64,000 nt of DNA. Source: Escherichia phage vB_Eco_mar003J3. The translations under genes and the position numbers were made by a program. The stretch is from the sequence record NC_048203.1. One strand, 5' to 3'. The notes beneath the pieces are model-generated. The model was given only the letters and a program-made list of their open reading frames with translations, was not told the DNA's origin and did not search any database. This document shows positions 2,402-7,604 of the stretch, in pieces. Numbering within the stretch: the first letter of the stretch is position 1; the number at the start of each line of letters is the position of its first letter.

Positions 2402-2698
2402 ATGAATAAAGCTGAAATTATTGCTCAATGCGAAAAATTTGGTGAGTTTTATCTTCATTACGAAAAACTTCGTCAGAAAGGAACCACGTACCTTCAGGGT
2501 ACGATGGAATTTGATCCAGCTCAGGATAAATACCTGGCTGAGCGTATTAAACGTGAGCGCATCCGTAAGCCGAAAGAAGATGAAATCCTCGTTTTCTCTC
2601 GTACTAATGATAGCTTCCGTTTCATTCCTGTTGCGAAAGTTCGCCGTGTGACGAGCCTCCAGTCAGAGTTAGATCGTGCTTCTCCAGTAGGCCGATAA
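2402..2698 (+). CDS. hypothetical protein
   Basis: 98-aa ORF followed by an intrinsic terminator. Confidence 0.5.
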   Translation: MNKAEIIAQCEKFGEFYLHYEKLRQKGTTYLQGTMEFDPAQDKYLAERIKRERIRKPKEDEILVFSRTNDSFRFIPVAKVRRVTSLQSELDRASPVGR

Positions 2699-2709
2699 GA
2701 AACCAATTA

Positions 2710-2729
2710 GCCCCTATATGGGGCTTTTT
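2710..2729 (+). terminator. rho-independent terminator
   Basis: GCCCC-TATAT-GGGGC hairpin followed by TTTTT. Confidence 0.7.
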
Positions 2730-2748
2730 GTGTATTTGGGATATGTAA

Positions 2749-3057
2749 ATGAGCGATCAGGTAAATCAAAACTATGAAGGACACGTTGACGACCAGTCCA
2801 TCATGCTTTGGGAGAAGGAGGGGGAACAAGTAAGACTAACCGTATCTGAATTTCGTGGGAATCTATACATGGGAATTCGTTACTGGCTCCAAGATATTAC
2901 TGGAGAGTGGTTTCCAACGAAATCCGGCTTCTCTTTTCCTTATACCCTAGAAACTACATCACAGCTATTCTACGCTTTTACGCAAATCCTCAGTGAATCA
3001 GAGGTCTTGCATGAAGTACAGAAACGAGCTGAAGAACTCAAAGCCAAGAATGTCTAG
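2749..3057 (+). CDS. hypothetical protein
   Basis: 102-aa ORF; terminator hairpin overlaps its 3' end. Confidence 0.5.
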   Translation: MSDQVNQNYEGHVDDQSIMLWEKEGEQVRLTVSEFRGNLYMGIRYWLQDITGEWFPTKSGFSFPYTLETTSQLFYAFTQILSESEVLHEVQKRAEELKAKNV

Positions 3058-3072
3058 TTCTTGGCTTTTTCT
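3043..3072 (+). terminator. rho-independent terminator
   Basis: GCCAAGAA-loop-TTCTTGGC hairpin followed by T-run. Confidence 0.65.
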
Positions 3073-3084
3073 TTATAAATGTAC

Positions 3085-3113
3085 TTGCTTTCGACTCAGT
3101 TTTCATATATAAT
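3085..3113 (+). promoter_or_regulatory. T5-type sigma70 promoter
   Basis: TTGCTT-17 bp-TATAAT followed by ATTTATATAAATTGATGAGAGG conserved downstream box. Confidence 0.7.
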
Positions 3114-3142
3114 ATTTATATAAATTGATGAGAGGATCAATT

Positions 3143-3343
3143 ATGGCAATGACAATAACACTTCCAAAGATTCAAGCAAAACTTAATTTGCTCTCCATAG
3201 CAAGAATCAATTACCAGGATAGTATCGGCACTCCAAACCAGAAAGCGTACAAAGATGCGTGGTTGAAAGAAGCTGCTGATTTAGCTGGTATGGCTGCGCA
3301 GTATAGTAAAGAACTCAAAATGGAAATCGCAGATGATGAATAA
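3143..3343 (+). CDS. hypothetical small protein
   Basis: ATG at 3143 with GAGAGGA RBS; inside ORF-track frame 3125..3343. Confidence 0.4.
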   Translation: MAMTITLPKIQAKLNLLSIARINYQDSIGTPNQKAYKDAWLKEAADLAGMAAQYSKELKMEIADDE

Positions 3344-4307
3344 TGTAAAAGACTTTATTAAACGTTGTCAAGAAGCGTACTACCAGGGAATGAGTCTTAT
3401 TTCCGATGAAGAATATGATCGTCTGATTAAAAGATTCCCACTAGAGGAAGAAATCGGACCGAAAGGTGATATCCCTCATTTGTATCGTATGTATTCTTTG
3501 CAGAAAGTCTATTACGATCGTGGTGATAAAGCTCCATTCAACCCACTTGGTCAGGTTGAAACTGATAAGTTAGATGGTTGTGCGATTTCTCTATTATATA
3601 TTAATGGTGAGTTTGTTCAAGCGTTAACTCGTGGTAACGGTATTCTAGGAAATGATGTAACGCATAATGTTAAAATGCTGAACATCCCCAAAACTATTTC
3701 CCAAAAAGTACCAACTCAAATCACTGGTGAAGTTCTCATTACTAAAGAAGTAGAGAACAAACGTAACTATGCTTCTGGTGCTATTAACCTGAAAGATAGT
3801 GATGATTTCATGCAACGTATTGGTGAAGGTGGTTTAATCTTCGTTGCATATGGTATCCAGTGTTCAGCGGAAACAGTCGGTATTACAGAAGCCTATTTAA
3901 AAGATATGCTTTGGCTAGAGAATGAGAACTTCTTGACAGTTGTTAATGTTCGTTCCTTTTTTAAATGGATTCCGACGGACGGTAAAGTTGTTCGTATTAA
4001 CGACAACAATAAATTCTTCCGTGAAGGTTGGACTAATAAATTTCCTCGTGGTGCATTTGCTATTAAAGAGGATGAAGAAGGCGAAATTACCACACTTGTT
4101 AAAGTTGAATGGCAAGTAGGGGCTTCTGGTAAAGTAACTCCAGTTGGTTATTTCGAGCCGGTGATTATTGATGATGCCACAATCGTTAAAGCAACTCTTA
4201 ATAACGTTGATTATATTAACGCTCTCGATTTAGAGATCGGTTGCCAGATTCGAGTGATTCGTGCTGGTGGTGTAATCCCTTGTATAGTAGAGCGAGTATA
4301 CGACTAA
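3333..4307 (+). CDS. NAD-dependent DNA ligase, N-terminal (adenylation/OB) subunit
   Basis: KLDG adenylation motif in VETDKLDGCAISL, typical LigA N-terminal region; ends before the Zn-finger/HhH/BRCT part. Confidence 0.8.
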   Translation: MMNNVKDFIKRCQEAYYQGMSLISDEEYDRLIKRFPLEEEIGPKGDIPHLYRMYSLQKVYYDRGDKAPFNPLGQVETDKLDGCAISLLYINGEFVQALTRGNGILGNDVTHNVKMLNIPKTISQKVPTQITGEVLITKEVENKRNYASGAINLKDSDDFMQRIGEGGLIFVAYGIQCSAETVGITEAYLKDMLWLENENFLTVVNVRSFFKWIPTDGKVVRINDNNKFFREGWTNKFPRGAFAIKEDEEGEITTLVKVEWQVGASGKVTPVGYFEPVIIDDATIVKATLNNVDYINALDLEIGCQIRVIRAGGVIPCIVERVYD

Positions 4308-4357
4308 TTCGTAACCCTTTGCTACCCGTTTACCATGTCGGAATTATAAAGTGGTTA

Positions 4358-4386
4358 TTGACATTTTCGCCGCTTAGGTATATACT
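4358..4386 (+). promoter_or_regulatory. sigma70-like promoter
   Basis: TTGACA-17 bp-TATACT in the spacer between the two ligase ORFs. Confidence 0.45.
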
Positions 4387-4450
4387 ATTATCATTCAGTT
4401 GAGGGATAGAAAGTTATGGCGAGGGTAAGCAAAGTTAGTTAAAATTGTAG

Positions 4451-4479
4451 TTGCTAAATGCTTAAATACTTGTTATAAT
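4451..4479 (+). promoter_or_regulatory. T5-type sigma70 promoter
   Basis: TTGCTA-17 bp-TATAAT followed by ATTTATATAAATTGATAAGGAAG. Confidence 0.65.
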
Positions 4480-4509
4480 ATTTATATAAATTGATAAGGA
4501 AGAAATTTG

Positions 4510-5289
4510 ATGAAAATCGAAATTCCAACACAATGTCCCTCTTGTGGTTCTAAGCTAGATCTTGTCAACGGGCAATTATTCTGTAGGAATAAGTCCAACT
4601 GTCCAGCACAATCAAGTAAGTTAATCGAGAACTTCTGCACAAAAATGAAGTTAAAGGGCTTTGGCCCGAAAACTATTGAGAAGCTGGAACTGACCAAGAT
4701 CTCAGAACTGTTTTACCTGACCGAAGAAGATTTGGTCGGAGCTGTGGGTAGCAAGGTTGCCGCTAAGTTGATTAGCGAGTTAAATACTAAGGTTCGCGGA
4801 GACATTGACTTTGGTTCGGTTCTCGGTTCTTTAGGAATTCCTCTTATTGGAGAGGTTGCAGCAAAGAAACTGTCCCAAAATTGCACTAGCTTCCACGATG
4901 TGAAGGCTGACGGCAAGGCTGGAGAAAATTACAAAACCTGGCTAAATTCCCCACAAGGCAAGGATGTTATTGAATTACCCTGGAAATTCTCAACTGGTAT
5001 TCGAGGTACTAAAGCTGATATCATCATTACGGATGATTTAGTTGCCCAGCCAAATGGAATCACGATCTGTATTACCGGATCTTTGCAAGATTTTGCAAAT
5101 CGAACGGATGCAACAAACTATTTAGAAAGTCTAGGATATACGGTTAAGAAATCCGTTACCAAAGACGTCAAATACCTAATCTGTGAGGATGAATCAAAAC
5201 GTTCTTCCTCATCTTATAAGAAAGCCGAAACGAATGGGATAGAAATCCTGTCGATTAAAGAACTATTGGAGAAAAATAATAATGTCTAA
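4510..5289 (+). CDS. NAD-dependent DNA ligase, C-terminal (Zn-finger/HhH/BRCT) subunit
   Basis: CPSCGSKL...C...C zinc finger, helix-hairpin-helix region and C-terminal BRCT-like segment; ATG 4510 with AAGGAAG RBS. Confidence 0.8.
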   Translation: MKIEIPTQCPSCGSKLDLVNGQLFCRNKSNCPAQSSKLIENFCTKMKLKGFGPKTIEKLELTKISELFYLTEEDLVGAVGSKVAAKLISELNTKVRGDIDFGSVLGSLGIPLIGEVAAKKLSQNCTSFHDVKADGKAGENYKTWLNSPQGKDVIELPWKFSTGIRGTKADIIITDDLVAQPNGITICITGSLQDFANRTDATNYLESLGYTVKKSVTKDVKYLICEDESKRSSSSYKKAETNGIEILSIKELLEKNNNV

Positions 5290-6049
5290 ACTGAACTGGA
5301 ACGTAGAAGGTGTAACCGAGTCTCTGAAAGCAAAAGCCACTGCTCTGGGTGTTGCTGTAATCTCTCAAGAACAAGTAGCTGCTATCGCTGCTGAACTGGC
5401 TACCGAGACTGGTAAAGACGTTACCGCTCGCTCTGTTGGCTCTAAGCTGCGTAAAGAAGGTTTCGAAGTACAGAAAGCTAACGAAGTACAGAAATCCCCG
5501 TGGACTCCTGAGCAGGAAGCTGAACTAGTTGATTTCCTGAACGCTCATGCTGGTCAGTATACTTACGCTGAAATCGCTGCTGCTGTAGCTGGTGGTCAGT
5601 TCGGTACTAAGCAGGTACAGGGTAAGATCCTGAGTCTGGAAATGACTGCTTCTGTTAAGCCAACTGAAAAAGCTGCTGCTGTTCGTTCCTTCACTCCTGA
5701 CGAAGAAACTGATTTCGTTAATCAGGTTGTTGCTGGTGCTACTATTGAAGCTATCGCTGCTCACTTCGGTCGTAATATTAAGCAGATCCGTGGTAAAGCT
5801 CTGAGCCTGCTTCGTGAAGGTCGTATCGCTGCTATGCCGGTACAGGAAACATCAAGTGCTAAGACTCGTGAAGATCTGTTAGAAGGTCTGGATCTGGCTT
5901 CCATGACTGTTGCAGAAGTTGCTGAGAAAACTGGTAAGTCTGAGCGCGGTGTTAAATCTATGCTGTCTCGTCGTGGTCTGGTTGCTAAGGACTATGATGG
6001 TGCTGCTAAGCGTGCTAAACTGGATGCAAAAGCTGCGGCTGCTGAATAA
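5282..6049 (+). CDS. D5-like DNA-binding protein (three internal repeats)
   Basis: 255-aa Ala/Lys-rich protein with three repeated ~70-aa units; size and position resemble T5 D5; inference. Confidence 0.5.
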   Translation: MSKLNWNVEGVTESLKAKATALGVAVISQEQVAAIAAELATETGKDVTARSVGSKLRKEGFEVQKANEVQKSPWTPEQEAELVDFLNAHAGQYTYAEIAAAVAGGQFGTKQVQGKILSLEMTASVKPTEKAAAVRSFTPDEETDFVNQVVAGATIEAIAAHFGRNIKQIRGKALSLLREGRIAAMPVQETSSAKTREDLLEGLDLASMTVAEVAEKTGKSERGVKSMLSRRGLVAKDYDGAAKRAKLDAKAAAAE

Positions 6050-6066
6050 TCTGGTAAATTAAACCT

Positions 6067-6098
6067 AAGGGGAGGGGGCTATGCTCCTTCCCCTTTTT
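6067..6098 (+). terminator. rho-independent terminator
   Basis: GC-rich imperfect hairpin (AAGGGGAGG...CTCCTTCCCC) followed by TTTTT. Confidence 0.55.
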
Positions 6099-7604
6099 GC
6101 ATTTAGAAGGCACGAAAGCGTGCAAAGGAGAATGACCTTGTTTAACGTGCAAGCTGTAGTGTTGAAGATGCTTCTCGCTTCTGAACAGAAGCAAATAGCA
6201 TTGGAAACATTCTCAAAACTGCATAAAGATCATTTTAATGACGCTTTCTCCTCAATTTACCAAGCCGTCCAGAATTATTATAAGAAATATAACGCAATGC
6301 CGTCCATTGACGCACTGATGCTTGAGGCCAATAGGAACGCCCGCCTTTCTCAAGCTCTTGTCGTCTTAGCTAACACTCAAATTCCAGAAGTGAGCATGGA
6401 ACAGGCACTTGAAGTCCTAGAAGCTGAATATACACAGGATCTATTCCTGAAACTTCTAGAAACAGACGTGCTTCAAGATTTAACAATGCTGGATCAGGGA
6501 GAAATTCTCAATCGAGTTGCCTCCCTTCACTTAAAATTAGAAGAGAAAGTAACGAATACTGGAAAGGTATTCAACGCAGACACAATGCGTATTTTCCAGA
6601 GAGAAGAAGATACCAAACTGAACTTGATCGCTCTTGGTATTTGTAATGAGTTCGACGCTCAAATTGGTTTAGCTCGCACAGAAACGTTACTGCTTGGTGG
6701 TTGGCGTGGTACTGGTAAATCCATTATCTGTTCAAACATACAGGTTCAGCAATATTTGAATGGGGATATTGCTCCATACTTCTCAATTGAGATGAAAGAA
6801 CATGAAGTATTTAGACGTAATCTAGCCATGTTAGCTGGCGTATCAGCACTAGCAATGCGTAATAATACTCTAGAAGGTGCAGCTCTGTTGAGATTAGCCA
6901 GAACTAGAGCTAGGATGTTTAACGGCGGTGAAGAGCTTTTCGATAACTTCGTTAAACAGTACACAATGGCTAAGATGAGTGATTTCTACGATATGGAAAG
7001 TAAGCTAATAGAAGGGTATGAGCTACATACTCCTATGATTATTGTTTATGACCCTGAACTGTCCATTACAACAGTTGACGTAGAATTAAATAAATTAGTT
7101 GCTAGATATGGTGATAAAGTTACAGTAGCTTTACTGGACTATATTAACCAAACCCGACTTCCAGACTCTAAAACCATTGATATGTATGACTGGAAAGAAC
7201 AGATGGTTGTTAGCTCGTCTTTCAAATCTATCTGCCAGAAACATAACGTGGCTGGTGTAGCCCCTTACCAGATCGATCAAGATGGTAGAACACGTATGTC
7301 AAAGGGGATTCTTGATTCCGCAGACATGGCTGCTAATCTTAATGCTGCAAAAGCTGATAATGGTCAAGGTGCTATTATGTTTGACTTCGTTAAGACCCGT
7401 TCTTCTGATAGCGTGAAGTTTATGCCTAAAATGAACTGGGAAACCCTACGGATGGATAACACTACCAACCTAGCAATGGAAGATATATCTCAAATGGAAG
7501 CTGAGTTCGTTATCCCTATTGAGAAGGATAAGCCGGCTCAATCTAAACGTGCTAAGAAAGACAAAGCTGAAAATTCAACAGGTGAACAGGCCAGCGATAT
7601 ATGA
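6081..7604 (+). CDS. DnaB-like replicative helicase
   Basis: Walker A GWRGTGKS and RecA-like core; listed ATG 6081 lies inside the terminator hairpin, so the true start is probably downstream (e.g. MTLFNVQ). Confidence 0.75.
   Translation: MLLPLFAFRRHESVQRRMTLFNVQAVVLKMLLASEQKQIALETFSKLHKDHFNDAFSSIYQAVQNYYKKYNAMPSIDALMLEANRNARLSQALVVLANTQIPEVSMEQALEVLEAEYTQDLFLKLLETDVLQDLTMLDQGEILNRVASLHLKLEEKVTNTGKVFNADTMRIFQREEDTKLNLIALGICNEFDAQIGLARTETLLLGGWRGTGKSIICSNIQVQQYLNGDIAPYFSIEMKEHEVFRRNLAMLAGVSALAMRNNTLEGAALLRLARTRARMFNGGEELFDNFVKQYTMAKMSDFYDMESKLIEGYELHTPMIIVYDPELSITTVDVELNKLVARYGDKVTVALLDYINQTRLPDSKTIDMYDWKEQMVVSSSFKSICQKHNVAGVAPYQIDQDGRTRMSKGILDSADMAANLNAAKADNGQGAIMFDFVKTRSSDSVKFMPKMNWETLRMDNTTNLAMEDISQMEAEFVIPIEKDKPAQSKRAKKDKAENSTGEQASDI

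Follow-up and report, generated by a model that had tools for sequence, protein, structure and literature searches.

Organization of the split NAD+-dependent DNA ligase genes ligA and ligB and of their promoter-containing spacer in Escherichia phage vB_Eco_mar003J3

Organization of the ligase locus

The window analyzed in this work is the whole stretch of 64,000 nucleotides of Escherichia phage vB_Eco_mar003J3 (sequence record NC_048203.1). A sequence search carried out with the ligase region has revealed 99.5% identity to Escherichia phage EscoHU1 and matches in 455 phage records, almost all of them T5-like, with at least 80% of the region covered in 429 phage records. The genes ligA, ligB, D5 and the replicative helicase follow each other in the window in the T5-type order. 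The features of the locus are the following:

3040 to 3068, plus strand: terminator-like hairpin (12-bp stem followed by a T-run) that ends the upstream transcription unit and is kept in T5
3085 to 3113, plus strand: T5-type promoter TTGCTT-17-TATAAT, upstream of the 72-aa ORF and ligA
3125 to 3343, plus strand: 72-aa ORF of unassigned function that runs into the start of ligA; EscoHU1 and TrudiGerster have it as a hypothetical protein
3333 to 4307, plus strand: ligA, 324 aa, with domain Ia, nucleotidyltransferase and OB domain
4338 to 4412, plus strand: promoter P-K28b, -35 TTGACA (4358-4363) and -10 TATACT (4381-4386), 17-nt spacing, 11/12 consensus positions
4431 to 4505, plus strand: promoter P-K28a, -35 TTGCTA (4451-4456) and extended -10 TGTTATAAT (4471-4479), 17-nt spacing, 10/12 consensus positions
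4496 to 4502, plus strand: ligB ribosome-binding site AAGGAAG, a Shine-Dalgarno element by reading of the sequence
4510 to 5289 (alternative start 4507), plus strand: ligB, 259 aa when translated from its ATG at 4510 (259-260 aa)
5282 to 6049, plus strand: D5 gene, with its ATG 8 nt inside the ligB end (AATAATGTCTAA); D5 protein in EscoHU1 and T5
6067 to 6095, plus strand: terminator-like hairpin after D5 (13-bp stem with 8 G-C pairs, then a T-run)

An earlier note on this DNA had described a ligase encoded in two pieces, an adenylation/OB half at 3333 to 4307 and a zinc-finger/HhH/BRCT half at 4510 to 5289, and had mentioned a similarly split ligase in T5. Both the open reading frames and the Pfam analysis agree with this division, and the T5 RefSeq record does contain separate ligA (T5.116) and ligB (T5.117) genes.

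Domains and conserved residues of the two subunits

The Pfam analysis of the ligA product has revealed the NAD-ligase adenylation domain PF01653 (84.3 bits) and the OB domain PF03120 (77.1 bits), and the protein aligns over its full length with chain A of PDB 9hu3 (E = 1e-106). When aligned directly with E. coli LigA, the protein has its motif I (K79-L-D-G) at K115-L-D-G of the bacterial enzyme, and the motif of the catalytic K79 is invariant among the aligned T5-like LigA relatives. Domain Ia, the NMN-binding region of NAD+ specificity, contains the stretch EAYYQ…ISDEEYDRL, which matches EYLYH…IPDAEYDRL of E. coli LigA. Residues Y16, Y17, E27, Y28 and D29 of this domain are invariant in the alignment of relatives; domain Ia residues are reported to be essential for NAD+ use in mutagenesis studies of the E. 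coli enzyme. Motif IV has arginine (R221) in the alignment, versus lysine in one-piece ligases.

The ligB product contains a BRCT domain (PF00533, 36.1 bits, cutoff 21.3), and its HhH match (PF12826) has a score of 21.6 bits, under the cutoff of 27. LigB residues 3-122 were aligned by phmmer with residues 402-529 of E. coli LigA (E = 1e-11), the overall alignment covers E. coli residues 402-666, and chain B of PDB 9hu3, described as 'DNA ligase subunit B', is matched with E = 9e-80. The four cysteines of the zinc finger (C9, C12, C25 and C31) are invariant among relatives; C9 and C12 correspond to the first two zinc-finger cysteines of E. coli LigA, which we take to be C408 and C411 in the numbering of that protein, and the second pair lies in the matching stretch. 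Both halves are conserved to 40-50% protein identity, with many invariant columns beyond the catalytic lysine and the four cysteines, and the Shine-Dalgarno element and ATG of ligB are kept across genera in the spacer alignment.

Position of the break in the ligase

The alignment with bacterial LigA that had been proposed in the earlier note has been carried out, and only one short segment was found to be lost at the junction. The C-terminal sequence VERVYD of LigA corresponds to VNVVLS of E. coli LigA, ending at S393, and TQCPSCGS of LigB corresponds to THCPVCGS (406-413), with T7 of LigB at T406, which places M1 of LigB at about R400. The E. coli linker ERPEDT (394-399), of about six residues, has no counterpart in either half, and there are zero extra residues at the junction on both sides; therefore, the break coincides exactly with the linker that joins the OB domain to the zinc finger. 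Conservation extends up to the break at the LigA C-terminus and at the LigB N-terminus, and the break is identical in all aligned relatives.

The spacer and its promoters

The spacer between both genes (4308-4509) consists of 202 nt with 32% GC and has stops in all three frames. The two promoter elements that the earlier note had read in it were both found in the promoter scan, and the T5 RefSeq record NC_005859 includes 'promoter P-K 28b' (66366-66440) and 'promoter P-K 28a' (66459-66533) as regulatory features. Since the spacers of the window and T5 are 99% identical in an ungapped alignment, the T5 promoters map to 4338-4412 and 4431-4505 and enclose both hexamer pairs. There are a few point differences between the two spacers, and just upstream of the P-K28a -10 the window has T and T5 has C. 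The TATAAT of P-K28a is preceded by an upstream TG. Names and activity of P-K28b and P-K28a are given here according to the annotation of the T5 record. The P-K28 names presumably come from the classical 1980s collection of cloned strong T5 promoters, and the purine-rich stretch TTGAGGGA that follows P-K28b is similar to a transcribed-region motif common to T5 promoters.

In the interval 2500-6500, 8 promoter-like sites were found versus 8.0 expected from shuffled sequences, so the scan proves little by itself, and the case for the promoters rests on the conservation of the hexamers, the T5 annotation and the presence of a promoter upstream of ligB in each scored split locus. Both hexamer pairs are kept in phages ranging from those of E. 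coli to those of Vibrio, with the P-K28b hexamers kept in six genera, even where the remaining spacer diverges, and the P-K28a TATAAT is invariant in the alignment. Two sigma-70 promoters in tandem and the ribosome-binding site of ligB make up the spacer, which is not leftover coding sequence. An 8-codon mini-ORF located after P-K28b (ATG at 4416, MARVSKVS) was also considered, and it was dropped because it is not kept in the Klebsiella, Proteus and Vibrio relatives.

The promoter at 3085-3113, which would drive the 72-aa ORF and ligA, coincides in the alignment with a T5 RefSeq feature that is labelled 'promoter' and has no name (positions 1285-1359 of locus L007, corresponding to 3065-3139 of the window). 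From the -10 onward, 22 nt upstream of ligA (3108-3129) are identical to those of P-K28a (4474-4495). This match is present in T5, TrudiGerster and the window and absent in the Klebsiella, Proteus, Providencia and Vibrio loci and in most marine loci tested, and the exact 22-nt match is restricted to close T5 relatives only. The scan has found no terminator-like site within the spacer, and the hairpin at 6067-6095, a strong terminator-like site, is likely the end of the ligB-D5 transcription unit. Without a terminator after ligA, ligB and D5 are expected to be transcribed both by read-through and from P-K28b and P-K28a, with transcription ending at 6067-6095. In the transcript structure that we infer, ligB and D5 would form one unit fed by P-K28b, P-K28a and read-through from the ligA unit, and their translation would probably be coupled, with the D5 start inside ligB.

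Distribution of the split and contents of the gap

The genes ligA and ligB were found as two genes in every record annotation and fetched locus inspected, and two subunits are annotated across about 450 phage records. In annotated regions of Klebsiella, Proteus and Vibrio phages (two genera in the latter case) and of another E. coli phage, ligA and ligB are separate and D5 is the next gene. A scan of IMG/VR has yielded 80 loci in which the halves are separate ORFs wherever both could be located. The split point is unchanged in the phages of Klebsiella, Proteus, Vibrio and Providencia examined and in the IMG/VR loci with both halves located, and the marine metagenomic relatives examined are broken at the identical point. 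Outside the T5-like clade, the nearest kin show about 26-31% identity, and their ligases are one-piece proteins of 613-669 aa. The split looks like a single old event common to the whole T5-like clade.

Across relatives, the gap between ligA and ligB ranges from less than 90 nt (roughly 50-90 nt) to 3829 nt and holds from zero to several unrelated genes. In all 54 split arrangements scored, a promoter with at least 10/12 consensus positions and a 17-nt spacer is located at most 230 nt upstream of ligB; these arrangements are the window and 53 loci from several genera, which are related and hence not independent. In cultured members the tandem promoters always occupy the last ~190 nt of the gap, about 93-96 nt apart. 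Members of the marine metagenomic clade have a gap made up of one consensus promoter, whose -35 TTGAC(T/A) overlaps the TGA stop of ligA in most of them; an A-rich stretch is located in the ligA end.

In some lineages, additional genes follow the ligA stop and precede the promoters. The gap genes recognized are the following:

Vibrio phage Achelous (L004): DprA-like gene
Proteus phage: NADAR-domain gene
Two metagenomic contigs: T5orf172-domain genes
Locus L045: crAss001_48-like gene
Salmonella phage SP3 and one relative: GIY-YIG homing endonuclease gene (Pfam 26.1 bits, cutoff 22.6)

ORFs similar to the gap gene of Achelous are also found in loci L042 and L044, where they have no Pfam match or were not scanned. 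The GIY-YIG gene of SP3 and the relative is located between the ligA stop and P-K28b, with its ATG overlapping the ligA end, and no more than 3 of the records searched were found to have such a gene. Endonuclease domains were not found in the ORFs that occupy the gap of Vibrio and Proteus phages, which are DprA-like or of unassigned function, and no endonuclease ORF is present at 4308-4509 of the window.

Nature and origin of the split

Another reading of the two ORFs is a sequencing or assembly error, which the earlier note had considered, or a decaying pseudogene. No support for either was found, and their probability is practically negligible: there are 429 independent phage records that cover the region, every record or locus inspected has two genes, the halves have kept 40-50% identity with the catalytic lysine and the four zinc cysteines invariant, and the break point does not change in any aligned relative. 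Introns, inteins and bypassing have precedents in phage replication genes, and this general precedent would be the only argument for two ORFs that give a single protein or mRNA by way of an intron, translational bypassing or frameshifting, or a split intein. At this locus such joining is highly improbable. The Rfam search at 4150-4650 with E values up to 10 gave three matches, all far below their gathering scores, no match was obtained at gathering thresholds across the whole window, and the fold of the spacer RNA is not more stable than that of shuffled sequence (z = -0.40). The degenerate intron that the earlier note had named as an alternative has no support in these same results or in the marine gaps made up of one promoter. 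Moreover, the junction lacks extra residues for intein halves, ligB has a Shine-Dalgarno element and an ATG of its own that are kept across genera, the PDB entries have subunit B as a chain of its own, beginning with the residue that aligns to M1 of LigB, and the gap, from less than 90 nt to 3.8 kb long, can hold whole genes.

Another explanation, to which we give a tentative place as possible and still rather unlikely, takes up the mobile-element scar named in the earlier note: mobile DNA, in the form of a freestanding homing endonuclease gene with a promoter of its own, would have entered a one-piece ligase gene long ago, the split would be a relic that has been tolerated since, and the endonuclease gene would have been lost later in most lineages. 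This explanation deals with the origin of the split and is compatible with a two-subunit enzyme. The gap behaves as a variable insertion site, given its range of lengths, it is occupied by the GIY-YIG gene in SP3 and one relative and by T5orf172-domain genes in two metagenomic relatives, and the closest relatives outside the clade have the ligase in one piece. Genes split by endonucleases that stay functional are known in T4-like phages, and in Aeromonas phage Aeh1 the nrdA gene is split by mobE, a freestanding homing endonuclease gene of the T4-like phages. The ligase resembles Aeh1 nrdA as an essential replication enzyme encoded in two neighbouring pieces, which presumably come together again at the protein level, and in the endonuclease gene that occupies the gap of some relatives (SP3). 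However, the gap of the window has neither an endonuclease gene nor a remnant of one and is filled by the two promoters and the ribosome-binding site, and the ligase split is family-wide and old, not lineage-specific as in Aeh1. In addition, the GIY-YIG gene, with three records, has the appearance of a recent arrival, the shortest gaps, which are marine, hold a promoter only, and no endonuclease domains were found in the ORFs that Vibrio and Proteus phages have in the gap.

Comparison with known ligases

The window belongs to a T5-like phage, and its ligase is very probably the NAD+-dependent enzyme of two subunits that is typical of T5-like phages (Demerecviridae). In T5 the genes, their order (D3 … ligA, ligB, D5, D6 helicase) and the 202-nt spacer are as in the window, and the ligase proteins are about 96% identical; a difference is the 72-aa ORF, absent from T5, that the window has after the upstream promoter and in front of ligA. 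The orthologous subunits of the Providencia phage vB_PreS_PR1/PSTCR5 ligase (PDB 9HU3 and 9I5I) align over their full length with those of the window, with about 55-61% identity and the identical split point, and the Providencia phages also have the tandem promoter layout, in a gap of 192 nt. The order of the six modules of E. coli LigA (PDB 2OWO), from Ia through adenylation, OB, zinc finger and HhH to BRCT, is kept in the window, where the HhH domain is a probable one. The phage ligase keeps the KxDG of motif I and the four-cysteine zinc site of the E. coli enzyme, although it is composed of two polypeptides that total 583 aa, whereas E. coli LigA is a single one of 671 aa. Ia and the adenylation domain of the phage enzyme have several deletions, and its motif IV has arginine in place of lysine.

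The split ligase, with the promoters in its spacer, has already been annotated and published for phage T5 and its relatives. The T5 subunits are given as AAU05253 and AAU05254 (PMC3632103), the split T5 ligase is also mentioned elsewhere (PMC1684257), and a work on T5 RNA polymerase mentions neither the ligase nor the K28 promoters (PMC7472727). The open-access search has found no literature on PDB 9HU3/9I5I, 'K28a/K28b' or T5 ligase biochemistry, and no experiments showing LigA-LigB binding or joint ligation for the source phage or T5. Gene structure, domain content, position of the junction, identity of the promoters with those of T5 and conservation of split and promoter have been computed here, and the small additions to previous knowledge are the family-wide link between break and promoter and the occasional endonuclease occupant of the gap.

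Subunit association and proposed function

The best PDB matches of both proteins are the entries 9HU3 and 9I5I, with chains A, 'DNA ligase (NAD(+))', and B, 'DNA ligase subunit B', the latter being 100% identical to a gene of the T5-like Providencia phages vB_PreS_PR1 and PSTCR5. The co-deposition of these orthologous subunits suggests contact between the chains, and hence that LigA and LigB form a complex. In the association and division of labour that we infer, LigA, with domain Ia, adenylyltransferase and OB fold, would, judging from truncated one-piece ligases, self-adenylate with NAD+ and seal nicks poorly alone, and LigB would contribute the zinc finger, HhH and BRCT that in one-piece LigA complete the clamp around nicked DNA. 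Both subunits would assemble non-covalently into a full ligase for Okazaki-fragment joining and repair in phage replication. A fragment of the Haloferax NAD+ ligase composed of Ia, adenylation and OB domains self-adenylates and cannot ligate (PMC1684257), a result that supports such a division of roles, with the chemistry in LigA and the DNA clamp in LigB.

The split may also be kept by selection for a separate control of LigB, which would be made in excess or with other timing and would have a nick-binding or scaffold role alone or set a late limit on sealing. We consider this doubtful; it is based on ligB being presumably co-transcribed, and probably translationally coupled, with the abundant DNA-binding regulator D5 behind two strong promoters. 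T5 virion DNA has fixed single-strand nicks, and a late limit on nick sealing, if true, might relate to them.

Significance

For annotation purposes, the two ORFs should be taken as a real two-subunit enzyme, not as a broken gene, and the spacer as a known promoter pair. As incremental points, naturally split enzymes of this kind are useful models for the assembly of multi-domain DNA ligases around a nick, and the presence of a promoter at the break throughout the family hints that the architecture of the transcription units helps to maintain the split.

Promoters and genes upstream of ligA and ligB

An exact 22-nt repeat, TATAATATTTATATAAATTGAT, was found at two sites of the window, and none is expected by chance. 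It comprises the -10 hexamer and the initial transcribed region, and is common to the promoter upstream of orf72-ligA and to P-K28a in the ligA-ligB spacer. This promoter repeat is kept in T5 and TrudiGerster and absent from more distant genera. Further upstream, the D3 gene is preceded by a promoter that corresponds, judged by its position, to promoter P-N 26 of the T5 record.

1868-1896, T5-type promoter (TTGCTT-17-TATAAT, TG upstream), upstream of D3
3108-3129 and 4474-4495, copies of the 22-nt repeat
3125-3343, 72-aa ORF between the upstream promoter and ligA
3978-3995, ligase motif IV (DGKVVR, LigA D216-R221)
5282-5289, overlap of ligB with D5, whose start codon lies 8 nt before the ligB end, AATAATGTCTAA

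The 72-aa ORF is also present in EscoHU1, TrudiGerster and a Klebsiella phage, whereas T5 lacks it (about 190 nt absent). Within motif IV of LigA, Arg221 is invariant among six T5-like LigA subunits, in contrast to the lysine found in the E. coli and Thermus enzymes (DGVVIK and DGVVVK).

The ligA-ligB gap in related phages

A GIY-YIG homing-endonuclease-like gene (213 aa) lies in the gap of Salmonella phage SP3 (L029 6965-7606; MG387042 64017-64677), after the ligA stop and before P-K28b, and such a gap gene was found in only three records, the two SP3 deposits and vB_Sen_SG_WM_RUS_R2. The gap of one Proteus phage locus is filled by a NADAR-domain gene (L039 6956-7612, 110 bits), and that of other Proteus phages holds just one 55-aa ORF.

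The separation in marine metagenomic T5-like loci (L050, L053, L062, L076 and some 30 others of this kind in IMG/VR) is scarcely longer than one promoter, and a single promoter would drive ligB. Its -35 hexamer, TTGAC(T/A), contains the ligA stop TGA (for example, L050 3076-3170).

The ligB-D5 junction

D5 adjoins ligB, or nearly so, in other genera too. In the window, the location of the D5 start codon inside the end of ligB suggests translational coupling of both genes.
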